A stretch of DNA of 64,000 bases from the IMG/VR virus record IMGVR_UViG_3300020472_000022; one strand, 5' to 3'. The notes beneath the pieces were generated by a model. It searched no databases. It was not told where the DNA came from and saw nothing but the letters and a program-made list of their open reading frames with translations. Position numbers and translations under genes: made by a program. Below are positions 28,578 through 63,311 of this stretch, in pieces. The stretch's first letter is position 1; every line of letters starts with the position of its first letter. The DNA comes from an uncultured virus (IMG/VR IMGVR_UViG_3300020472_000022). Taxonomy: Duplodnaviria; Heunggongvirae; Uroviricota; Caudoviricetes.

Positions 28578-28883
28578 ATGAACTTAAAGATAACAGAAAA
28601 GAGTAGGAAAGGAGACTTCGCTGAACTATATGCTATAACATGGTTATGGGATAACGGCTATGAAGTTTTTAAGAATGTAGGATGTACTGGTATTGTAGAT
28701 TTAATAGCTATGAAAAACGGAGAGACAAAACTAATAGATGTTAAAACAGAAACCACAGATAATAAACGAGGATTAAAAAGAAATAAATCTTGTAGAAGCA
28801 AAGAACAAATAGAAAAAGGAGTACAGTTAGTAATGTTTAATCCTGATTATAGATCACTTAGATTTGTAGCTCATAAACAATGA
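28578..28883 (+). CDS. Small PD-(D/E)XK endonuclease
   Basis: KGDFAE..GYEVF..VDLI..LIDVKT. Confidence 0.7.
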   Translation: MNLKITEKSRKGDFAELYAITWLWDNGYEVFKNVGCTGIVDLIAMKNGETKLIDVKTETTDNKRGLKRNKSCRSKEQIEKGVQLVMFNPDYRSLRFVAHKQ

Positions 28884-29746
28884 AATATAAATTAGACAAT
28901 GTTGTTGATGATATTTATAAAAAGCTATCAGTCTTAGGAAAAGGAAAGCAATTAAAAATATCTGAAGACGAGATACAAAATTTTGGTGAAGCCATGAAAG
29001 ATAGTTTAAGATCATGGTGCAAGCCACACGCACATAATAGATCTCCATCTTTAAGAATGTCTAACATAGGTAAAAAACCTAGACAGTTATGGTTTGATAT
29101 GAACTCACCAAAAGATAAACAAGAAGCATTACCTCCTTCTCTTTTTATTAAGTTTCTTTATGGTCACTTATTAGAAGAAGTTATGTTATTCTTAGTAAAG
29201 TTATCAGGACATAAAGTAACAGGAGAACAGAAAGAAGTATCTGTAGATGGAATAAAAGGACACATGGACTGCATTATAGATGGAGAAGTTGTTGACATAA
29301 AAACAACATCAGGTTTTTCATTTAGTAAATTTAAAGATGGAACTCTAGCTGAACAAGATACCTTTGGTTATATGTCTCAATTAGCAGGATACGAAGAAGC
29401 TGAAGGTACAAAAGATGGTGGCTTCTTAGCAATTAATAAAGAGACAGGAGAGTTGGCATTATTTAAACCATCTACATTTGATAAACCTAATATTAAAGAG
29501 AAGATTAAAAAATTAAAAAGTTATATGAAGAAAAAAACTCCTCCTGAATTTTGTTATACTCCTGTACCAGATGGAGTATCAGGCAATATGAAATTACCTA
29601 GAGAGTGTGAATGGTGTAGACATAAGTTTGAATGTCACAAAGACACTAACGAAGGTAAGGGATTAAGAGTATTTCAATATGCAGGTAACAAAAGGAAATA
29701 CTTAACACAGACACCTAAATTACCTAGAGTACCAGAGATAACATAA
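28880..29746 (+). CDS. PD-(D/E)XK exonuclease (Cas4/RecB-like phage exonuclease)
   Basis: LRMSNIG, GHMD..DIK, QLAGY, C-terminal CEWC..C. Confidence 0.75.
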   Translation: MKYKLDNVVDDIYKKLSVLGKGKQLKISEDEIQNFGEAMKDSLRSWCKPHAHNRSPSLRMSNIGKKPRQLWFDMNSPKDKQEALPPSLFIKFLYGHLLEEVMLFLVKLSGHKVTGEQKEVSVDGIKGHMDCIIDGEVVDIKTTSGFSFSKFKDGTLAEQDTFGYMSQLAGYEEAEGTKDGGFLAINKETGELALFKPSTFDKPNIKEKIKKLKSYMKKKTPPEFCYTPVPDGVSGNMKLPRECEWCRHKFECHKDTNEGKGLRVFQYAGNKRKYLTQTPKLPRVPEIT

Positions 29747-33117: not shown

Positions 33118-33338
33118 AAAAAAAGAATACTAAAGATGCAAACTTAGTAAGTTTTAAAATATTATTAACAAAAGAAAATGAAATAGTTACAGAACTAAGT
33201 TCGTTACCTGAAAAAGAAGTAGATAATATTTTTTATGAAAGCGAAAGAGATATTGTCAGATTTATTCTAAGAAAAGGCAAAGAAAAATTAATTGGATTAC
33301 ATAGCCTTTTACAAAAAGATTTAAACTCTAGGGGGTAG
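33114..33338 (+). CDS. Hypothetical protein
   Basis: Last gene of the rightward unit. Confidence 0.6.
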   Translation: MKKKNTKDANLVSFKILLTKENEIVTELSSLPEKEVDNIFYESERDIVRFILRKGKEKLIGLHSLLQKDLNSRG

Positions 33339-35061
33339 TGTAAACTTTTAAAGACTTAGACTTGCCTTTTACATTTATTTCTTTTATAAAGGTAGTTTTT
33401 ATTGTTGAATGTTTAGCAGTAGCTTCGCTAATTAGAAGATTAATACCTACATTTTTTGTAGCTGACTCTAACCTAGCACCAGTATTTACTGCATCTCCGA
33501 TGGCGGTGTAATCGAAGCGTGTGTCACTCCCCATGTTTCCTATGATTGCATCGCCTGAAGATATACCTACGCCTATTTCTACACCTAAGTCAGCTTCCTT
33601 TATCTTTTGAAGCATCTGTTGTCCTGCTAATATAGCTCTGTTCTCATGATCCGTTAAGTCTAATGGTGCATTAAAGATAGCCATCATAGCATCACCAATA
33701 TACTTATCTACCATACCACCTAGATCTTGAACTATAGATGATTGTATAGTTAATGCTTTGTTCATAATCTCTGTTACTTCTTGTGGTTCTAGCTTCTCTG
33801 ATAAAGCTGTAAAGCCTCTGACATCTGTAAATAAGAAGGTACAGTATCTTTTTTCACCACCTAATCTAAGTAGAGAAGGATCATCTTGTAGTTGTTTGAC
33901 TTGTCTTGGGTCTAGATAATGCTCAAATTGTTTCTTAATCTGTTGCCTTAACTTGAATTGTATTCTAAAGTTTAGCCAGAATTGTTGTGTAGATACAAGT
34001 ATCATAGATATCATACTCCAAGTCACATCTATGAGTAAATTAGACTGTATCGTGTAAGCTCCTCCAAAGCCTGTTAAGACTATTAAACCTAAAGCCGATG
34101 CCATTCCGATGGTAACACCAAGAAAGTTGATTACAAGGGCAACCAGAAGCCCTGAGATAGCAAATAAAGATAACTCTAGGACTAATCTGTAGTCTGGTAT
34201 TTTAGGACTCTCCATTAGTATACTTTCAGCTAGTGCAACTTGTATTTTATGAGGCTCTAATAGTCCTACTGGAGTAGATAATTGGGGCATAATACCTTTA
34301 GCTGTAACACCTACGAAGACAAAGGTATCCTGTACATTCATCTCCTCTAGTGTAGTCTGTGGTGTATCAACCCAACTAATCCACTTTCTTCCTAGACTGT
34401 CTGTTGAAATGGGAGGTAGCCCTTTTACTCTGATTTGCTCTATACCATTTATGTTTGTTCTTATTTGATATGTCTGACCACCTCCTAATATTTTTAATAC
34501 TTGTGTACCAAATGAGGCTACCCACCCACCTTCTGTTTGTTGTAATAATGGAATCTGACGCACCAATCCATCAACATCTATAGGAGCTGTTAATACTCCT
34601 TGAGTAGCAGAGTCTTTTAATACTGGTGTATTTTCTAGGAAACCTTTTGCTTTAGGTAGATTTACATCTTCACCTACTATAACTGTACCATGTGTCTCAG
34701 GATAGATACCATTATCAACTTCTGGCATACCTATAACACTTGGCAAACTTTGTAAAGCTATACTAAACTCTTCATCTCCTCCAAACCTATCAGGTTCTGG
34801 AAAGAGCATTACCCATCCAACACCTATAGCACCTTTGTCAAGTAACTCGTATTGAATTTCAGCAAGTCTTTGTCTTGGAAAAGGATAGCCACCTTCTCTT
34901 TGCACATCTTCATCAGTTATGTTCAAAGTTGTAAAGTATCCTGTAGGTTCAGGAGTTTCTATGAAGGCATCAAAGGTTTTAAGTCTAAGGATCTCTAATG
35001 GCTTTGCATTAAATATTAGAGGCAATGATAGTATAGTTAAAAGAAGTACAGCCCAACGCAT
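33328..35061 (-). CDS. CHASE2-domain class III adenylyl cyclase
   Basis: N-terminal TM, CHASE2-like region (YPFPR, F.EPDR, DVDGLVRQIP), 3 TM helices, FTDVRGFT, DKYIGD, YTAIGDAVNTGARLE, VKGK. Confidence 0.9.
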   Translation of the reverse strand: MRWAVLLLTILSLPLIFNAKPLEILRLKTFDAFIETPEPTGYFTTLNITDEDVQREGGYPFPRQRLAEIQYELLDKGAIGVGWVMLFPEPDRFGGDEEFSIALQSLPSVIGMPEVDNGIYPETHGTVIVGEDVNLPKAKGFLENTPVLKDSATQGVLTAPIDVDGLVRQIPLLQQTEGGWVASFGTQVLKILGGGQTYQIRTNINGIEQIRVKGLPPISTDSLGRKWISWVDTPQTTLEEMNVQDTFVFVGVTAKGIMPQLSTPVGLLEPHKIQVALAESILMESPKIPDYRLVLELSLFAISGLLVALVINFLGVTIGMASALGLIVLTGFGGAYTIQSNLLIDVTWSMISMILVSTQQFWLNFRIQFKLRQQIKKQFEHYLDPRQVKQLQDDPSLLRLGGEKRYCTFLFTDVRGFTALSEKLEPQEVTEIMNKALTIQSSIVQDLGGMVDKYIGDAMMAIFNAPLDLTDHENRAILAGQQMLQKIKEADLGVEIGVGISSGDAIIGNMGSDTRFDYTAIGDAVNTGARLESATKNVGINLLISEATAKHSTIKTTFIKEINVKGKSKSLKVYTTP

Positions 35062-36201
35062 TTAACCTCCCTGTTTGATTGTTATAGTAGAGGAAGTGCC
35101 ACCATTAACTGATAGCGGTGTCCTCTTACCATCTTGTTCTAAGACAACAGAAGATGATCCTGATTTATCAAGATTGATTCTGGAAGTATCTGAGACTTGT
35201 CTAAGGAATGTAACATCATTATCTGTTACGAAGGTATTAATTTGTGTGTTAGGATCAAAGCCTACTGCAGTACCTTTAATAGCTGTATCAGTAGTTAATC
35301 CAGATTTAGATTTATCTAGCTCATCAACATCTTCTATTATGTCTAATAAGTCTTCTAAGAAGTTTACATCTAAATAGTTAATGTCTAGTTCAGTATATTC
35401 TAGCTCGTCTTCTTCTAACGAATCTACCTCTAGTTCATTAAACTCTAAGTAATCTACATCTAATATATTATCACTTGAGCCTGTACTGTCTTCAGAGCCT
35501 TCAATGCTTTGTTCATCAGGAGGAGTTACTATAAGCATGTTATCTATTAGCTCTAATGTAATGTCTAATATAACAGGAGAAGAAGGAGTAGCTTCAAACA
35601 TAGATACAGTTGTAGCCTGATATGGCTGATTCAATGTAACTTGTCCTAGAGCTGACGATACAATCACTTCTCCGCTAGATAATCCGTTCTCATCGGGCAA
35701 TAATATGACTAAAGACCTACCAAGCTCATCTACAGTCACAGTAAAGTCTGTGCCTCTAATACCTATTGTAGCGGTAGGTGTCTTTATTGATATGTTTTCT
35801 TTATTTATTCTGGATAAACCACCAGATATAAAACGAGCAGTACCGCTAGCAAACTGAAGTGCCATCTTGGAATTACTTGGATTAGCATCATAGATAAACT
35901 CATCTATAAGAAGCTTAGAATGCTCAGTTAGTCTTACTTTACTATCATCAACAAATGTAATAGCTACTCTACCTTTAGCAGTCTGTACATTATCATAACT
36001 ATTGATAGAAAAAGCTAACTCAGCTTCATAATCTCTATCTCGTACTACTCTACCTAGCCCATTAAGCTCGGTAATACTTCCTATATCAGCAACCGACTGC
36101 TGTGCCTCCGTCATCCTGCTGGACACACACAGTACCATTGTTGCCAGAAGAAGTAATTTTAAGCCAATCGTTGTCAAGTGTACTATGTTGGTCAACATCA
36201 A
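35062..36201 (-). CDS. Exported FecR-domain protein
   Basis: Signal-like N-terminus, VQT..GRVAITFVDDSKVRL, IKTPTATIGIRGT; true start probably downstream of 36201. Confidence 0.8.
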   Translation of the reverse strand: MMLTNIVHLTTIGLKLLLLATMVLCVSSRMTEAQQSVADIGSITELNGLGRVVRDRDYEAELAFSINSYDNVQTAKGRVAITFVDDSKVRLTEHSKLLIDEFIYDANPSNSKMALQFASGTARFISGGLSRINKENISIKTPTATIGIRGTDFTVTVDELGRSLVILLPDENGLSSGEVIVSSALGQVTLNQPYQATTVSMFEATPSSPVILDITLELIDNMLIVTPPDEQSIEGSEDSTGSSDNILDVDYLEFNELEVDSLEEDELEYTELDINYLDVNFLEDLLDIIEDVDELDKSKSGLTTDTAIKGTAVGFDPNTQINTFVTDNDVTFLRQVSDTSRINLDKSGSSSVVLEQDGKRTPLSVNGGTSSTITIKQGG

Positions 36202-36802
36202 AACTCCTTGAGTTACCTGTATGATCTAGATAGAAATAGCCTTGTGCATATCCATCACCATCAAAATCAACAGCATTTGAATCACCATCTATATCCATAA
36301 AGTTAGTACCTTCATCATAATCTATATCGGCATCAATAGTATTACTATCGCCTTGTACTATCCAATCTAGATCAGTTGTACCAGCTAATGCATTAGTAGC
36401 TAAGTCTAGTGTAAATGTGTTACTAGAACCTGTTGTTTGTACATTTAAGTTTGAGTTATCAGCACCATAGGTGTTTGTAGGATCAACTTGAATAGTAAAC
36501 TGATTAGTATTACCATCAAATTGAAACATACCAACAACTGTATCAGCGTTTATATCTCCTAAGAATTTATTTGCATCACCTATTTGATTGACATCTAAAG
36601 TCATAGTAGCTCCGTCTAAGTCAAAAGCAGTTAGATTTCCTGCAGTTGAATTTAATCCGCCTATCATGTTACCAGTACCCATTTGTTCTAAATCTATACT
36701 TGCAGATGCGCCTACTTGATCAACAAAGATTTCATTATCAGCCGCGAATGCCGATACACCCGTCATCATTGCAACTAGGAACATTAATTTTAGTTTGTTC
36801 AT
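36086..36802 (-). CDS. Curlin-like (CsgA/CsgB-like) repeat protein
   Basis: Signal peptide ..SAFA; repeated x-Q-x-G-x-x-N units (DQVG, EQMGTGN, NQIGDAN, QGDSN); directly after csgG. Confidence 0.65.
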   Translation of the reverse strand: MNKLKLMFLVAMMTGVSAFAADNEIFVDQVGASASIDLEQMGTGNMIGGLNSTAGNLTAFDLDGATMTLDVNQIGDANKFLGDINADTVVGMFQFDGNTNQFTIQVDPTNTYGADNSNLNVQTTGSSNTFTLDLATNALAGTTDLDWIVQGDSNTIDADIDYDEGTNFMDIDGDSNAVDFDGDGYAQGYFYLDHTGNSRSFDVDQHSTLDNDWLKITSSGNNGTVCVQQDDGGTAVGC

Positions 36803-37607
36803 ATTCCCAATATCCCCTATCTATACCTATGTTAATAATATTTAAAACTGCTTCTTCAATAGCTTTTTGTAAAGCAATAGAAACACTTTCATTCTCCGTT
36901 ACTCCCCCTTCTACTTCTACTAGCTCTGTACCTTCCTCCAAGAATCTAAATAGATCTTGTGTTAATCCAACAGATAATATAGACTTTGAAGTCATTACTT
37001 CCATTAGAATCTCTCCCGTTGATACAGATACTAATCTTACAGATACACTAACGCTATCCTCTCTGTATTGTTTACTGCTTCCAATACCTAAATATCTTGC
37101 CCCCAATCCCCCACTAAATGTATTAGTGTCGTAGCTGATTACACCACCCTGTATTAGTAATCCAGCAAACAATAAAGGCTGTAATGTACTGTCCTCTTCA
37201 AAGCTCTCTCTAGTGCTTCTAATTAGTTGTCTCTCTTTAGTTAAGCTATCTAAGCCTACCCTTTCAACAACTTTAAAGAACTTGCCATTAGAGGCGTGTT
37301 TTAAAGCTCTAATAAGAAATGCTTCTGGAGCTTGAGTAATAGCTGTACTAAATAAAGCAAACTGACTATTACTTCTTCTAGCCCCTGTTAAGTCTTGAAA
37401 GCTATCTGCGTATACAGCTATAACTGGCTGTTGTGCAGATGGAGTAACATTCTTTAATTGTTTAGATTGTAAATCAAGTAGAGAAGCATCCTTCATAGAA
37501 GTGTAAGGAATACCTCCCGGACTTAATAAATAACTTGTATCTATTGCACAACTAGAAAGTAAAACTGCCAATAGGCACACTAATAACTGTCGTGTTACCT
37601 TCCGCAT
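36738..37607 (-). CDS. csgG: Curli secretion channel CsgG-like lipoprotein
   Basis: Lipobox LSSC; QDLTG..FSTAITQ..VERVGLDSLTKERQLIR..GGLGARYLGIG..QYR.D. Confidence 0.88.
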   Translation of the reverse strand: MRKVTRQLLVCLLAVLLSSCAIDTSYLLSPGGIPYTSMKDASLLDLQSKQLKNVTPSAQQPVIAVYADSFQDLTGARRSNSQFALFSTAITQAPEAFLIRALKHASNGKFFKVVERVGLDSLTKERQLIRSTRESFEEDSTLQPLLFAGLLIQGGVISYDTNTFSGGLGARYLGIGSSKQYREDSVSVSVRLVSVSTGEILMEVMTSKSILSVGLTQDLFRFLEEGTELVEVEGGVTENESVSIALQKAIEEAVLNIINIGIDRGYWEYEQTKINVPSCNDDGCIGIRG

Positions 37608-38007
37608 CAACAACAGTAAGGGTAATGATATCTCCATCAACCAAGTATTCAATAGTATTTCCCTCTAAAGTTATAGTACCTGATTCACTAGGCACTTCTC
37701 CAAATATGTTATCAACTAACTGTCTAGATAACTGTGCATAAACTCTACTTTCTAAGTTCCTAATAAACCTAGCTAGTGTTGTATTGTTAGCATCTCTTGC
37801 TAATTCTTCTTTATAAGCATCAATCTCTTCTTGTATTGCTTGCTTCCTTGTAAACTCTTGATTCTGTATAGTTAAGTAATGAGAGCTAGTATTGATACCA
37901 GAAAAGCTTGGACTGTTAAATCCAAACACCATCTCATCTCCATCAGCAGGAGAGTTTATTAAAAAAATAATAAGTAATACTGCAAAGACACTAATCTTTT
38001 TTATCAT
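37552..38007 (-). CDS. csgF: Curli assembly factor CsgF-like
   Basis: Signal peptide then EMVFGFNSPSFSG (compare CsgF MTFQFRNPNFGG); directly upstream of csgG. Confidence 0.8.
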   Translation of the reverse strand: MIKKISVFAVLLIIFLINSPADGDEMVFGFNSPSFSGINTSSHYLTIQNQEFTRKQAIQEEIDAYKEELARDANNTTLARFIRNLESRVYAQLSRQLVDNIFGEVPSESGTITLEGNTIEYLVDGDIITLTVVDAEGNTTVISVPIGSFTF

Positions 38008-50424: not shown

Positions 50425-50670
50425 TTATGGAGTATAAGCTTTTGCTTTGGTAATAGCTGCATTAATTGCAGTAAAATCTTCGCTTCCCCAATCATCTAAT
50501 GCGACACCATATTCTAAATAACCACAAGTTCGTAATACGCGGGCTTGTTTTTCAGCGTTGGTCATATCGTTACAAAAGTCATTGCTGTCGTCTAGACAGT
50601 TATCAATAACAGTAATCATACCTACCATAGCATTATACATTTGTGCTTTTTCATCTGATGTTCTTGCCAT
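50425..50670 (-). CDS. Hypothetical protein (copy 2)
   Basis: Near-identical to 867-1112. Confidence 0.8.
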   Translation of the reverse strand: MARTSDEKAQMYNAMVGMITVIDNCLDDSNDFCNDMTNAEKQARVLRTCGYLEYGVALDDWGSEDFTAINAAITKAKAYTP

Positions 50671-50694
50671 TTATTTTACTCCTTACATTTACAT

Positions 50695-51078
50695 TTATTG
50701 TTTTTTTCTTTTAAATATTTTCCAATCTTTAGAACGCCTTCCATTTTTAATAAGAGTTCCTTTTTGTTCTAGTTCTCCATTCTCATAGAAAATTTCACAT
50801 AGTCCATTAGGAATACCATCTTTATGCATAGTTTTTCGTTGTATGTTTCCGTTTTCCCAATACCAAGTTGCTAATCCAATTCTATATCCTGCTCTATTAT
50901 TTGGTAAATTTCCTTGTACAACTCTATTAGAAGGTCTATTTTTTGGATCACCAGTTTCATACTCTTCTGGAAAAATTTTAGTTCCTATTGGTTTATTAAT
51001 AAATTCTTTTGGCATCTCTACATAGTAACCAGTAAATTTTAATGTTTTATTATCTTCTTGGAATCTTTCAATAAACAC
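50695..51078 (-). CDS. MORN-repeat protein (copy 2)
   Basis: Identical translation to 1137-1520. Confidence 0.65.
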   Translation of the reverse strand: MFIERFQEDNKTLKFTGYYVEMPKEFINKPIGTKIFPEEYETGDPKNRPSNRVVQGNLPNNRAGYRIGLATWYWENGNIQRKTMHKDGIPNGLCEIFYENGELEQKGTLIKNGRRSKDWKIFKRKKQ

Positions 51079-51113
51079 TACTTCTTCCGATATTTTTGTT
51101 AATATAATTTTAA

Positions 51114-52979
51114 TTATTTTTTACATTTACATTTATTGTTTTCTAACTCTTCAACTTTAGCAGACAGTTCTTGGACTGACTTAACTAACATAGGTACAAA
51201 TTTACTATAGATTAAACCATACTGATTACCATCATTACTAAGGGTAGTTGTAAGGTTTGTTTTATCAGCTATATTATAACCATACTCAGATTCTAATTTT
51301 TCTACATCTTGAGCTAAGAACCCAGTATCTAACCAATCTTCTTTGTGAGTACCATCAGTAATTAAGTCTTTAAAGTCTTTGCCTTGTTCAACATATTTAC
51401 TTCTTTTGTCCCATCTATAAGTAACAGGTTCTAACTTATTAACAAAGTCTAAACCCATTTCCATTGGTGTTACATCTGTTTTATCACGCTTATCAGAAGC
51501 TATTGACCAAGCTACTTGAACATTTGCACTAGTAATAGAGGCATGACCAAGACATATATGATTACTGTCTGTTGTTATATTTCCACCCGGATTTCCTGTT
51601 CTACCTGCATCAGTACCTAAAAATATATTATTAGCACCGCTTGACACCGCAAAACCTGATCCTTGACCCAATGCAACATTATAATTACCTGTAATTGTAC
51701 CTCCACCCATAGCATCAGTTCCGATTGCTGTGCTACCATTACCTGTGGTTTGAGCATCAGCAGCTCTAGCACCAATCATAGTATTTGATACGCCTGTGCT
51801 TAAAATTTTTCCTGCTTCATAACCCAAAGCCGTATTATAATTAGAAGTTGCTGAATCAAAGTCTTGTGTTTGTAAAGCTCCATAACCTACAGCAGTTGCA
51901 CCACTTCCTAACTGATCTCCTGTTAAAGCATTTGCTCCTACAGCAACATTATAATCAGCATCTTCTAGAGCATCACCTGCTGAATGACCTATAAAAGTAT
52001 TATAAACTCCTACAGTCATACCATATCCTGCATTAGCACCTACTGCTGTATTTCGTGTAGTTGTAACTGATGTAAAGTTTTGTACTCCTAAAGCTGCATA
52101 TCCTATAGCAGTACTCTGATCTCCTTTAGTGTCTGATCCTAAAGATGAAACACCTATAGCAGTATTAAAATCAGCATCCGAAAGAGCATCACCTGCAAAT
52201 GCACCCATAATTGTATTGTTAGTTCCTGTACTTATTGTAGTACCAGCATTATATCCAACGGCTGTATTATCATTATTAGCATCATTATTTTGTGTGCTTA
52301 GTGTCCCATAACCAACAGCCGTTGATCTACTACCTGTATCTTCTGCGTCTAAAGCTGCATAACCTATGGCTACATTGTTATCCCCTGTCGTTAAAGCCGT
52401 ACCAGCTTCATCACCAATAACAGTATTATAATTACCGCCACTTGCAATGCTGTTACCTGCATTAACACCTGCTCTAAAGTTACTTGTTCCTGCTGAAGCT
52501 GTGATTATATCTGCACCATCTGAAAATGTTGTATCTCCAGCAATAGAAAGGGTTCCTGCCAAACTTAAATCTGTAAACGCATCATAAACAACCGCTCCAG
52601 AGCCACCTCCATCCGTTGCTATTACTTTTACCTGACCTGCCAAAACAGCGACATTAGCTCCTGATCCTTGAGAAAAAGTAAGCGTATAGGATGTTGCATT
52701 TTCAATAAACCAAACTTTACTAACAGTATTTGGAGCTAGAGTAACAGTACAAGCTTGACCTCCTCCTGTGCATTTTAAATACAAACTTCTGGCTTCATCG
52801 GCAGTTCCATCAGCCATTGTGATAGTATGTGTCGAAGCATCTGCTATGGCTTCTGAGCCATAGCTAAAGGCAGAAGCAATTTGTTCGATGCTGGCATTAA
52901 GTTTTGTTCCCCAGTCACCACTATTCTCTCCAGTAGTTTGTTCTTCAATCCTAAGATCATTTACATAAGTGCTTGCCAT
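51114..52979 (-). CDS. Tail fibre with S74 chaperone (phage B)
   Basis: Different ~155-aa N-terminus (GENSGDWG) fused to the same C-terminal ~460 aa as 1556-5641. Confidence 0.85.
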   Translation of the reverse strand: MASTYVNDLRIEEQTTGENSGDWGTKLNASIEQIASAFSYGSEAIADASTHTITMADGTADEARSLYLKCTGGGQACTVTLAPNTVSKVWFIENATSYTLTFSQGSGANVAVLAGQVKVIATDGGGSGAVVYDAFTDLSLAGTLSIAGDTTFSDGADIITASAGTSNFRAGVNAGNSIASGGNYNTVIGDEAGTALTTGDNNVAIGYAALDAEDTGSRSTAVGYGTLSTQNNDANNDNTAVGYNAGTTISTGTNNTIMGAFAGDALSDADFNTAIGVSSLGSDTKGDQSTAIGYAALGVQNFTSVTTTRNTAVGANAGYGMTVGVYNTFIGHSAGDALEDADYNVAVGANALTGDQLGSGATAVGYGALQTQDFDSATSNYNTALGYEAGKILSTGVSNTMIGARAADAQTTGNGSTAIGTDAMGGGTITGNYNVALGQGSGFAVSSGANNIFLGTDAGRTGNPGGNITTDSNHICLGHASITSANVQVAWSIASDKRDKTDVTPMEMGLDFVNKLEPVTYRWDKRSKYVEQGKDFKDLITDGTHKEDWLDTGFLAQDVEKLESEYGYNIADKTNLTTTLSNDGNQYGLIYSKFVPMLVKSVQELSAKVEELENNKCKCKK

Positions 52980-54407: not shown

Positions 54408-55024
54408 TATTGCAAAGGCTTAAAAGCCATTCGCATTGATACTTGTCCTTGTGATCTTTCATTGCTGATGTTCATATCAGCAATGGCTTTTTCGTAAAGA
54501 CCAAAAAATGTTCCTAGTCTTTCATCATTCTGTAAATATGGTGCGCTTTGAATAAGCGCTCCATATAAATAAATATCTGGTGATAAAGATAAAAGCCAAT
54601 TACTTGTATTGCTATCTGATAAAGCTTCTACTTTTCCATAATAAACAACTTCTGCTGTATAGCTTGCATCTGGAGATGGATATACTTCAAACTCGGTTCC
54701 TACCATCGTAAAATATTTTGGTCTACCTGATGCACTAGAAGCATGTCTTTTTTCATTAATTTGTTCTTGTGTAATATATTCAAGTGGCTCTATTGGATCA
54801 GTCTGTAGATTTAAAGCTACTGTCTGCATCCAGTCAGTAGGTGTAGCACTATATCTTTCAGATATAGTTGCTGTTGATCTTGTTACCATTTTTCTATGTC
54901 TAATAGAACGATTAAACTGAGCTTCAGCTAAAGTAATAAAATCTGGTATCACTGAAGATAAATCTGAACGATTTAACCAATCTCCAACGCTACTTTGTAA
55001 TTCACTATAAGTAGTAATTGCCAT
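54407..55024 (-). CDS. Head-tail adaptor-like protein (phage B)
   Basis: MAITTYSEL..DWLNRSDL..FITLAE, YPSPD, PDIYLYGAL. Confidence 0.7.
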   Translation of the reverse strand: MAITTYSELQSSVGDWLNRSDLSSVIPDFITLAEAQFNRSIRHRKMVTRSTATISERYSATPTDWMQTVALNLQTDPIEPLEYITQEQINEKRHASSASGRPKYFTMVGTEFEVYPSPDASYTAEVVYYGKVEALSDSNTSNWLLSLSPDIYLYGALIQSAPYLQNDERLGTFFGLYEKAIADMNISNERSQGQVSMRMAFKPLQ

Positions 55025-55356
55025 TAAATCCTACCGCCTCTTGTTTTAAAATATTTATTGTCTGGATCATTAAGCCACTTTTTCATTGCAGCTTGATCGT
55101 TAGTAATTCCTTTTTTCTTTAGTTCGTAATAAATACTCATAGGAATAGAAGCTACTTTGCTCCATTCCCCATATTTTTGATGCTTGTCTATTTCATTTGC
55201 TTGTATCTTGTTATGTTTAATTATTGACGAAACATCTTGTACTGTTTGTATGACGATTGAATCATCACTTTCTCTACCGCTACTTGATTCTTCATATTGA
55301 AAATTAGTTGTTGTACTTGTAGCTAAATCTTTATCAATTATTCTTTTCATAACCAT
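55024..55356 (-). CDS. Conserved hypothetical protein after MCP
   Basis: QDVS.II, KVASIP, KKWLNDPDN. Confidence 0.7.
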   Translation of the reverse strand: MVMKRIIDKDLATSTTTNFQYEESSSGRESDDSIVIQTVQDVSSIIKHNKIQANEIDKHQKYGEWSKVASIPMSIYYELKKKGITNDQAAMKKWLNDPDNKYFKTRGGRI

Positions 55357-55400: not shown

Positions 55401-55420
55401 GGAGAGGGTTGCCCCTCTCC
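55401..55420 (-). terminator. Hairpin after phage B MCP
   Basis: GGAGAGGG-GCAA-CCCTCTCC; weak U tract. Confidence 0.55.
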
Positions 55421-55441
55421 TTCACTTTACTTTTTACTCGA

Positions 55442-56644
55442 TTAAGAAACGCTTAAGTCGTAAGCAGCTCCCAAACCTTTTTCATTTCTAACTTCTAATC
55501 CACCTTCAAAGATCAGCATGCTTTTCTCAGCATCACCAGTCTTAGCCAGTTTTACTTCCTGAATAGGTCGCAGTGTTGCTACTGCTGCTAACTCAGGATC
55601 AAGAACATAAGCATCTCTTGATCTTGAGAATCTATTAGGTACGATTGAAACAGAACCGAAGTCACTCACATAACAATTTTCTTCAAAATAAGTCGCTAAC
55701 TTATTCCCGTTATTAACTGCTCCATGTCGCCATGAAGTTGAGACTATATCATCATCCGTTCTGGATGGATGGCGCTTCCGCTCGCTTGAGCGTACTCCTT
55801 TCGGATAGTCGTTGCACCTTCCCTTTCGGGCTTGGCTCAATATTGTCTTTGTACTAAAGAGTTTCATTGAATTCACCATCTTATTGCCTGCGTATCCCTA
55901 CGCAGCGATGCTTAACATTGAGTCAACATCAGCAGCCCCTACGATCACCGTTGGACCATCACTCGGAGCAAGATACCTGTTCGCAGCTATACCTGAAAAT
56001 CCTGATACAACTGTCTTTACATGTGCCCCGACCATCAGCATTTGCGGATCACCGCCACTATTCCAAGTGCTTTGTAAAACAGCTTTTAAAATAGTTTCAG
56101 TAATTGCTCGTGGTGTTCCATCAGTACATTGAGTGCCATCGCCAGGTGAAGAACCACCAGAACCATGAGAGACATTAGTTGCTACCCATGAGGAAAGTGA
56201 ACCTGTCTCTCTAGCAGTGGAAGTGCCCCCACTAACCTTCGAATTATTCACCCCACAAAAATTTAACTCAATATCTCGTTTTAGCTCACGGCCAGCTTTC
56301 ACTAATTGATAAGCATGTTCTGATTTTCTACCTGCTTCATTAATTACTTCTAAGTTGTCAGCAATGATAAAAGTCTTACGCATAATTTGTGAAAAATTAG
56401 TACGAAGAGTTGTTGCTGCAACCGCAGAAAAAGATGAAACATCATCACCATCAAGTTGTGCATTTGCTGCTGCATTTGCAAGTTGGTCTTGTTGCCAACT
56501 AAAGGTTGTGTTAGTTATTTTTCTTTTACCGATATTCGAAACGAATGGAGTGTCTTGAGGAGATACATTCCAAATTACATTGGATAAATCCTCTCTCATT
56601 CCAACGGCTGAATACCTTGTAAAAGTATTAGTTACAATTGCCAT
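55442..56644 (-). CDS. Major capsid protein (phage B), spliced: exons 56644-55926 and 55673-55442, 316 aa
   Basis: REDLSNVI..SP.DTPF N-terminus; splicing restores AADV-YVSDFG and the LAKTGDAEK C-terminus. Confidence 0.85.
55674..55925 (-). ncRNA. Group I self-splicing intron (252 nt, no ORF, IA2-like)
   Basis: P1 with U.G wobble, P3 GAUGGUG/CGCCAUC, P4 UUCAAU/AUUGAG, P7 GACUA/UAGUC, P7.1/P7.2, P8, P9, terminal G. Confidence 0.92.
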
Positions 56645-56656
56645 TTTTATTTACCT

Positions 56657-57694
56657 CTATATCATGTTTTTAATAAGATCTACCGCATCACCGAAGCGGC
56701 CACTTTTTTGTAACTTCTGTTGAGATTGCTTGACCATTCTATTTTGTGCATTAGGTGTGCTTTTACTAGAACCAGGTCTAACAGTTTTTTTACTGTTAGA
56801 CTGTTTTGTTCGAGCTTTAGACACTCTCTTAACACCTTTATCATATAACCATGCCTTTCTGAGTAATTTGACATGATCTGCTTTGATAAGTTGTTGCATT
56901 TCTTCGTTGGTAATTCCTTGATCTAGTAACCACTCTCGTAGTTGACCTTTCTCATTACCAGCTACCTTATTGTCTTTCCATTCTGGAATCACTTCAGTAA
57001 GCTTTGCATTTTCTACAGTTATGACTGATTGAAGATAATTAGCGTGTTCCTTTTCGTTTGTTTGCCTGATTCTTTCTTGCTCTTGCTGTATAGCTTCGAG
57101 CTTTTTCGTTCTGGCCTCTTCTTGGGTTCGCCATTGTCTTTCTTGTCTTGCTGCTTCTATTGGATTAGCTTTATATAAAGCATCCCAATCGGGTTGACTT
57201 TGAGGTGTATCTGCTTGTAGTTGTTGTTCAAGCTGCCCAATTAATTGAGCATATTGTTGTCTCTCTTGAGTTACATTCGCAAGTTCAGAATCATAAGCTT
57301 TACGCTGTTCAGCTAGCTCTTGCGATTTTCTAGTGTAAGAGGCTTGACGAGAATAGCCTTTTTTAAGTTCATCAAGGGATACCTGCTCTTCTTGACCATC
57401 TACTTTGATGTCAAAAGATTCAGGTTCCTCTATAACTTCTTCTTGCTCTTCTGCTGTCTCACTTTCTTCGGCAGAAACATCGTCTAGTTCGAGTTCTTCA
57501 GACTCCTCTAAAGCTTGCTCTTCTAGTTGTTCACTCTCTGCCTCGCCTTCAGCTAATGCTTCAGACTCATTATTAGCCGCTAAATCTTGGCTTTCACTCT
57601 CAGGTTGCTCGTTTGAGTCCTGGTCAAAAAGATCTTCCATAATTTGTTTGGCTTCACTTAAATTGATCGGACCAGTTGGTTTTGTATCTGCCAT
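56657..57694 (-). CDS. Scaffolding protein (phage B)
   Basis: Acidic N-terminus, KVDG.E..VSLDELKKGYSRQASYTRK motif. Confidence 0.8.
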   Translation of the reverse strand: MADTKPTGPINLSEAKQIMEDLFDQDSNEQPESESQDLAANNESEALAEGEAESEQLEEQALEESEELELDDVSAEESETAEEQEEVIEEPESFDIKVDGQEEQVSLDELKKGYSRQASYTRKSQELAEQRKAYDSELANVTQERQQYAQLIGQLEQQLQADTPQSQPDWDALYKANPIEAARQERQWRTQEEARTKKLEAIQQEQERIRQTNEKEHANYLQSVITVENAKLTEVIPEWKDNKVAGNEKGQLREWLLDQGITNEEMQQLIKADHVKLLRKAWLYDKGVKRVSKARTKQSNSKKTVRPGSSKSTPNAQNRMVKQSQQKLQKSGRFGDAVDLIKNMI

Positions 57695-62615: not shown

Positions 62616-63311
62616 TTAAGAAGCCCAATTTTCCTTCTTGCCACAATGGCGCATGATTGTTGAAGGAGAACAAGGAAAAAACTTACTTGTAATTTCATCA
62701 GCAATTTTTCTAAAAGGAACATGATCAGATCTTCTTTGTCTCATAAGCTTGTCAGCTTCCGTCTTGTGTTTAGATTCAATTAAAAATGATTCCTTACCAT
62801 TGCCCTTCAATTCCCATCCAAAGGGAATAGGACCGCCTGTATAGCCTTTAGATTTGATGTTAGGTAAAGACATTGCAGCTTTAGATTCTTTGCCTTTAGT
62901 AATACGATCTTTAATCATTAATCTTTCGTAATCTGCAAAAGAAGCCATGATGTTAATCATTAGTTGAGCTACGATATTTTTATCATCAGTTAGATCACCT
63001 AAATCTTTAGTAATAACTCTTACACCTAATGATTTAAGTTTTTCTATGTCATTTAAGCAATTCCTAAGATGTCTCGTAAAGCGATCTAGTTTAGCAACGA
63101 TGATTACATCTCCTGATTTGAGTTCAATATCTTTCATAGATGGTCTTTCAAAGAAATTAGTAGAACCTGAAACGCCCACATCTTTTAAAATTTTTTTTAT
63201 TTTTAGGTTCTCTATCATTGCTAGACCAGCAACTTGTCGTTCCTGGTCAGCAATGCTGGTGTTATCAGCTTGGCTAAGTGTAGAAACTCTTGCATATCCA
63301 TAAACTGTCAT
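62616..63311 (-). CDS. Serine recombinase (resolvase family)
   Basis: YGYARVST..Q, D.GVSG, AKLDRFTR, A.YER..I, C-terminal HTH. Confidence 0.88.
   Translation of the reverse strand: MTVYGYARVSTLSQADNTSIADQERQVAGLAMIENLKIKKILKDVGVSGSTNFFERPSMKDIELKSGDVIIVAKLDRFTRHLRNCLNDIEKLKSLGVRVITKDLGDLTDDKNIVAQLMINIMASFADYERLMIKDRITKGKESKAAMSLPNIKSKGYTGGPIPFGWELKGNGKESFLIESKHKTEADKLMRQRRSDHVPFRKIADEITSKFFPCSPSTIMRHCGKKENWAS

Follow-up and report, generated by a model that had tools for sequence, protein, structure and literature searches.

Group I introns that share the catalytic core, the P7.1 and P7.2 hairpins and the P9 extensions of the intron described here interrupt td, nrdB and nrdD of phage T4, orf142 and nrdE of phage Twort, and genes of the Bastillevirinae (PMC11878797, PMC3984707). 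T4-like phages and Twort also returned BLAST matches to our intron. The hairpins P7.1 and P7.2 and an extended P9 domain (P9.0, P9.1 and P9.2) are traits of subgroup IA2 (PMC4227781), which has been reported to be heterogeneous (PMC11878797) and to make up more than half of viral group I introns (PMC11835236). Splicing by the standard group I route is established for the family (PMC3984707). Unlike the intron described here, the phage IA2 introns named above lie mostly in genes of nucleotide or DNA metabolism and mostly carry an endonuclease (PMC11878797, PMC3984707), as do 32 of 45 introns in the Bastillevirinae (PMC11878797). The bias of phage group I introns toward nucleotide and DNA metabolism genes was called unexplained in 2025 (PMC12350094, PMC11878797). 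Virion genes can be hosts as well: three introns interrupt Twort orf142, a virion gene (PMC11878797), and the introns in the tape-measure gene of ICP1 include an empty one (PMC10448857).

Capsid genes have also been found to be interrupted. Splicing of the capsid-gene intron of mycobacteriophage LittleE was demonstrated by RT-PCR and by N-terminal protein sequencing across the junction, and a capsid-gene intron in the lactococcal phage Tuc2009 is cited in the same report (PMC3706429). LittleE resembles the present case in that a major capsid gene of a temperate phage is split, with a U at the end of the exon and a G at the end of the intron, but its intron is 819 bp long, contains a putative LAGLIDADG gene and lies in an HK97-like capsid gene (PMC3706429). 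The 265-bp intron in a tail gene of phages BAKA and Optimus is short, like the 252-nt intron described here (PMC3706429). In crAss-like phages, likewise known from metagenomes, several group I introns may occupy one major capsid protein gene; those introns were found through endonuclease domains in intron-rich genomes (PMC7886860, PMC10136315), whereas those of SU10 capsid genes contain no ORF and lie nowhere but in the capsid gene of the records that were examined. The Jug phages have short introns (mean about 206 nt) with metatranscriptome support, but they are jumbo gut phages whose genomes each carry about 18 introns and many free-standing endonucleases, and the host genes named in the available part of that report are terL, nrdD and DNA polymerase, the capsid gene not being named there (PMC12880540).

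A capsid-gene location is thus not new, and the rarity of such introns implied by the initial annotation of this locus is not supported, given the published cases of LittleE and the crAss-like phages and the dozens of introns that the SU10 capsid family holds. What we add is a family-level pattern of ORF-less introns in SU10 capsid genes, a large set of which the intron described here is one. In the literature searched, no paper was found on introns in SU10 (DUF5309) capsid genes or on a capsid intron hotspot, although subscription papers or supplements may contain one. The supplement of PMC12350094 contains neither 'capsid' nor 'head', and no record covering 80% of our intron was found among 50,697 annotated phages.

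A group I intron in an SU10-type capsid gene

The window, by which we mean the whole 64-kb stretch of DNA that was analyzed, holds sequence of two phages, A and B, and the interrupted gene belongs to phage B. Both exon 1 (55926..56644, 719 nt) and exon 2 (55442..55673, 232 nt including the stop codon), on the minus strand, match PF17236 above its cut-off (E 1.7e-56 and E 1.1e-21, respectively) and phrog_1328. On the same strand, the gene is preceded by a scaffolding protein gene (56657..57694, phrog_3927) and followed by a terminator-like hairpin (55402..55417), recognized as a consensus match, and by a gene for a 110-aa protein (55024..55356, phrog_3982) with no assigned function and no nuclease match. 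The matches on both exons and the gene order, which is terminase, portal, scaffold, capsid and adaptor, identify the product as an SU10-type major capsid protein. Its relatives with solved structures are 9ny2 and 7z45, and the nearest capsid protein of a cultured phage is at most 53% identical.

Between the exons lie 252 nt (55925-55674, minus strand) with a GC content of 44%, compared with about 36-38% in the surrounding DNA. The initial proposal that a group I intron splits the capsid gene was borne out by a covariance-model search, in which RF00028 matched 55935-55720 over model positions 1-253 with 86.6 bits (E 1.1e-20), above the gathering threshold of 50 bits; this is the sole Rfam match anywhere in the window. 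The fold of the intron has a z-score of -2.82 against 200 shuffles. The terminal base of exon 1 is a U and that of the intron a G. When the reading frames were recomputed, the joined exons gave an open frame of 316 aa and the unspliced frame terminated at 248 aa, as had been claimed. The only in-frame stop, a TAG, sits in the P2 hairpin (55888..55905, minus strand), so that full-length capsid protein requires splicing and, as first stated, capsid output must pass through this step. The intron itself encodes no endonuclease; its sole long frame is the open frame that enters exon 2 and matches the capsid family only. Recoding of the stop codon was considered as a bypass of the intron and was ruled out, because the scaffolding protein gene ends in TAG and TAG is therefore a genuine stop in phage B.

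All helices lie on the minus strand. P1 (55907..55930) pairs the last five exon bases with the internal guide, placing a U.G at the 5' splice site, and the guide also offers P10 with exon 2. P2 is followed by the catalytic core P3-P8 (55742..55880), which is supported by the RF00028 match, by pairing and by covariation, and which includes P7 (55810-55806 with 55746-55742), P7.1 (55805-55796) and P7.2 (55792-55779). The 3' domain (55685..55737) comprises P9 (55737-55720), P9.1 (55717-55709) and P9.2 (55707-55685). Every helix of the initial annotation was found at its given position, and P6, P9.1 and P9.2 had to be added to its list. P10, proposed there as UAA paired with UUA, is present but has just 3 bp, and a second duplex is predicted between intron nt 3-7 and exon-2 nt 6-10 (-5.7 kcal/mol). 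The description of the intron as "minimal" was too strong, as P2, P7.1, P7.2, P9.1 and P9.2 are all retained and 252 nt is an ordinary size within the family range of 234-308 nt. The gap from P9.2 to the terminal G is only 11 nt, and no IS200/IS605 or IS607 element of the kind expected in an IStron was found downstream of P9.2.

Protein similarity alone is insufficient to place the splice site: in one comparison the true site scored 169 and an alternative 5 nt downstream 170, and in another the true site was ahead. P1 has 5 bp, including the U.G, at the true site and 2 bp at the alternative. The site is decided by P1 together with the intronless allele L003 and the joint in RNA-library contigs, both described below, and the splice sites first proposed proved exact.

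Over 17 capsid-gene introns, 96.6% of cells are paired as predicted compared with 35-41% in slid controls, a comparison that favors the model because its structure comes from a sequence within the alignment. Changes on both sides occur in 52 of the 67 pairs, among them all 7 pairs of P2 and 8 of the 9 pairs of P9.2. P3 and P7 are fully paired in all 17 sequences, and the first P7 pair is an invariant G-C. The defining elements of a group I core are present, namely the P3-P7 pseudoknot, the P4-P6 domain and the G-binding pair in P7. The IA2-type features P7.1 and P7.2, to which the initial annotation had pointed, were confirmed along with P9.1 and P9.2; all four covary, P9.0 was recognized by eye only, and the class is assigned by features, the general Rfam model being the only one scored.

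Taken as a whole, the account of an active, compact IA2-type group I ribozyme is in our view very probable, and its mobility part is much less sure. In the late mRNA of an SU10-capsid phage, the ribozyme would occupy a conserved part of the message that encodes the major capsid protein. Free guanosine would attack at the P1 U.G pair, after which exon 1 would attack behind the terminal G, with P10 aligning, and the 316-aa capsid protein would be restored. Such splicing would be autocatalytic and GTP-dependent, the guanosine dependence being expected by analogy with the intron family.

Intronless alleles, joined RNA and mobility

In the following, L denotes contig loci, G genome records and X metatranscriptome runs. 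A search of viral contigs with exon 1 returned four loci (L001-L004). The intron is identical letter for letter in L001 and L002, L004 is cut short, and L003, which is collinear with exon 1, has no intron and continues across the predicted junction. L148 is a second close intronless allele and is likewise continuous over the junction, so that the search for intronless alleles suggested in the initial annotation was successful. Compared with the exons of the window, L003 differs at 49+10 sites and L148 at 8+8 sites in its available part, and alleles with and without the intron are 93-97% identical. G001 is identical to the window over the region and may come from the same sample; neither G001 nor L001 was counted as independent. 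A protein cluster of 59 members contains both 248-aa and 316-aa forms among the 15 members listed, where six 316-aa members differ from the product of the window's exons by 8-12 aa.

Four marine metatranscriptome runs provide the RNA evidence, which consists of assembled contigs, not reads, and has no paired DNA run. Exactly 252 nt are skipped at the predicted place in contigs of X1, X2 and X3, no joint was seen in the contigs of X8, and the intron is covered in the contigs of none of the four runs. The junction check that had been suggested was therefore positive in three runs, at the level of contigs; X2 and X3, with identical contigs and depths, probably represent a single data set, so the joined runs amount to at most two independent ones. 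Over its 922 nt, the X1 contig agrees with the window's exons at every base; it ends at 55422, just short of the terminator-like hairpin. The X2 contig has one difference from these exons, and it is common to the intron-bearing L002. On the simplest reading, the joined form would be the spliced mRNA of the intron-bearing allele. The contigs are strongly suggestive, and not proof, of removal of the intron in vivo, as the same joint could come from an intronless allele with identical exons or from DNA carried over into a library.

The intron could in principle be a dead relic, or the joined RNA could derive from a co-occurring intronless phage, leaving the intron-bearing allele with no working capsid protein or dependent on reading through the TAG. 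Read-through would suit an intron whose length is divisible by three and whose frame holds just one stop, two properties that the window's intron shares with all 9 members of its clade. We consider this explanation highly improbable, as the core is intact with compensatory changes, the exact 248-aa product is present on 30 contigs, the scaffolding protein gene ends in the same codon TAG, and the RNA contig matches the exons of the intron allele. Moreover, the other SU10 introns have 2-10 in-frame stops. The locus is a clean natural test case, with alleles that carry and lack the intron, RNA support and an easily assayed ribozyme of 252 nt.

Between the window and L002, exon 1 differs at 26 of 719 sites and yet the intron is 100% identical, and the 248-aa members of the protein cluster carry several exon-1 haplotypes (among the 15 of 59 listed). 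An identical intron on diverged alleles fits recent lateral spread and fits ordinary recombination too. As these genomes are about 97% identical overall, with patchy differences, recombination explains the identical intron as well as homing does.

The 252-nt intron lacks the homing endonuclease gene of a mobile intron, and no HNH, GIY-YIG or LAGLIDADG domain was matched in the 71 ORFs of the window and 32 neighbor ORFs (Pfam). No endonuclease adjoins the capsid gene in G001, G003 and G006 (PHROGs, 86 ORFs), and the ORFs scanned in G003, a record with two introns that is 79% complete, include no homing endonuclease. The intronless relative G002 has one endonuclease-VII/HNH-like gene in its replication region, and G006 has one weak homing-endonuclease match, neither of them near the capsid gene. 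The scaffold and phrog_3982 genes flank the capsid gene in both allele types, which is not the arrangement expected of collaborative homing. PDDEXK and Cas4-like genes (28578-29746) belong to phage A. The nuclease search covers about 14.7 kb of phage B; about 60% of this phage lies outside the window, where a distant trans-acting nuclease may be encoded. As no endonuclease was found in the examined part of phage B, in the 71 window ORFs or in G003, an endonuclease history is unproven.

Most likely, the intron would have arrived a single time together with a homing endonuclease, since lost, or by way of a trans-acting one during co-infection, and its present spread in the phage population would reflect recombination or trans-homing. 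It would now be a near-neutral passenger, retained because only exact deletion is tolerated at an invariant, essential site.

Related introns in SU10 capsid genes and beyond

Seven of the 120 best homologues of the capsid protein (57-64% identical) end right after the same motif as the unspliced product of the window, and their DNA contains a related 258-nt intron at the same nucleotide position; the motif GAAD[VIL]Y is uninterrupted in 112 of the 120. This constitutes an annotation trap, in which databases hold truncated 'capsid proteins' of 248-258 aa. Core-pattern scans and a capsid-based metagenome scan yielded 43 distinct introns in SU10 capsid genes, some of them near-identical, at about 16 codon/phase positions and with up to 4 introns per gene; this count omits gaps in L019/L038 and L221 (2 and 3 core motifs) and the third intron of L015/L051. 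None of the 43 is long enough for a homing endonuclease. Three boundaries were set by hand: those of the window's intron and of L062, where similarity is ambiguous, and that of one L010 intron, where it is wrong by P1 criteria. The positions cluster at residues 111-120 and 237-244, and the stretches in which they lie are conserved (p=0.001 for 15 positions and p=0.04 for 6 clusters).

Several genes combine 3-4 introns with exons down to about 78 nt (L010:337-2314, L221:544-1412, L154 and L190), and these short exons are candidates for exon skipping. The clade of the window's intron, drawn from the window and from loci among L052-L062, L094 and L141, has 9 introns, all with a length divisible by three and a single in-frame TAG, and in this clade 74-77 codons are open into exon 2 (55442-55897, minus strand, in the window). 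For one sequence the chance of both properties is about 0.03 by base shuffling, and their occurrence throughout the clade may reflect inheritance and chance. In two unrelated introns, one in L055 and one in L141, the exon-2 frame is likewise open, for 88 and 83 codons, and in the remaining SU10 introns it is not.

The introns might have spread between sites and capsid families with no endonuclease. The intron RNA would reverse-splice into the very abundant capsid mRNA, and the product would then be reverse transcribed and recombined. Such a route would explain both the pile-up in capsid genes and the ORF-less state. The 43 introns resolved in SU10 capsid genes all measure 234-308 nt, and P1 has been re-matched to the local exon sequence at each different site. 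Close relatives of the window's intron (L094, L141) lie 6 nt downstream of its site, sister introns in the tree occupy distant sites, and the capsid gene contains all 12 RF00028 matches of records G003-G006 (4.9-27.8 kb, 12-79% complete). We nevertheless consider the route unlikely. Direct evidence for it is lacking (PMC3984707), and endonuclease homing would itself lead to a preference for conserved codons, homing elements having been reported to prefer conserved sites (PMC2814812). Relatives that carry an endonuclease are known from other genes and from a single further capsid family (the LAGLIDADG-like case of L021), search patterns with limited loop lengths favor short introns, and the deep support of the tree is weak.

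Selection might instead maintain the intron as an adaptive switch that ties capsid synthesis to GTP or energy status, or that blocks leaky capsid expression from a prophage. A 'molecular on-switch' has been proposed for phage introns (PMC11878797), one gene has been occupied repeatedly and independently by up to 4 introns, and the relatives look temperate. Near-identical phages nonetheless do without the intron, and the best 80 related metagenome loci, retrieved with a query that favored intron-bearing lineages, comprise 71 with an intact gene, 6 with an intron and 3 that are cut. The missing intron cover in RNA contigs fits fast, unregulated splicing and proves nothing, and we regard such a switch as quite improbable. 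Reverse splicing and adaptive maintenance both concern origin or upkeep and are compatible with an active intron.

A scan with an intron-core pattern found at least 120 loci, and the 80 with DNA were assigned by PHROGs and a capsid profile and tallied by hand. Capsid genes account for 31 of these 80 loci (18 SU10 capsid and 13 other capsid families). The others fall in genes for DNA polymerase (18), ribonucleotide reductase (8), tail or virion proteins (5), RNA polymerase (3) and terminase, helicase or recombinase (3), with an endonuclease only at 8 loci and no assignment at 4; the tally includes a few duplicates and one uncertain capsid call. The scan is biased and not a census, because the pattern was built from capsid introns and its limited loop lengths favor short introns.

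Related introns were seen in at least seven other capsid families. They occur in capsid genes of phrog_3437 (L005, L013, L014, L025, L037, L163, L187), where they are 75-77% like the window's intron over about 215 nt, of phrog_1357 (L006, L018, L024, L043, L047, L161, L189), of phrog_10 (L020, L172, L198) and of phrog_283 (L030, L034, L185, L217), and in further families at L039 and L203 and at L162 and L186. At L021:2700-3224 (minus strand), a LAGLIDADG-like ORF lies at a related intron that adjoins a phrog_9953 capsid frame, a possible endonuclease-bearing capsid intron. Prokaryote genomes gave 5 pattern matches, one of them (L276) in an SU10 capsid gene. This gene (L276:788-2327) has an intron and a wide gap and is found in a bacterial genome bin, and it probably represents a prophage or a binned phage contig.

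A broader reading, which we find doubtful, is that capsid genes are the main and overlooked home of compact ORF-less IA2 introns in environmental phages, and that they reach new sites although they encode no endonuclease, with the most abundant late mRNA as a possible target of reverse splicing. They would have been overlooked because they offer no protein to detect. If true, this reading would overturn the stated nucleotide-metabolism bias of phage introns and would provide a natural, testable case of endonuclease-free intron transposition. Should an unbiased census confirm the concentration in capsid genes, the question of bias would change form and the travel of ORF-less introns would become directly testable.

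Two phages in the window

The window contains a direct repeat of 2,089 bp (867-2955 and 50425-52513, 99.2% identical) that spans the end of a tailspike gene and a MORN-repeat gene. G001 (14.7 kb) matches 64000-50425 and then 2955-1, omitting the 47 kb between. Since G001 joins the repeat copies directly, a circle of phage A appears to have been looped into a fragment of phage B, either by chimeric assembly or by recombination (a cointegrate). The window holds only about 14.7 kb of phage B. The repeat looks like a tail cassette common to two unrelated phages. G002, the close intronless relative, has an integrase and a repressor, and phage B is probably a marine, temperate phage.

Two further gene arrangements were observed. 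In phage A, csgF, csgG, a FecR-domain gene and a gene with CHASE2 and adenylate/guanylate cyclase domains stand in a row (33328-38007, minus strand), which by gene content may be a curli-export-like and signaling cluster. A serine recombinase/resolvase gene (62616-63311, minus strand) lies just upstream of the terminase region of phage B.
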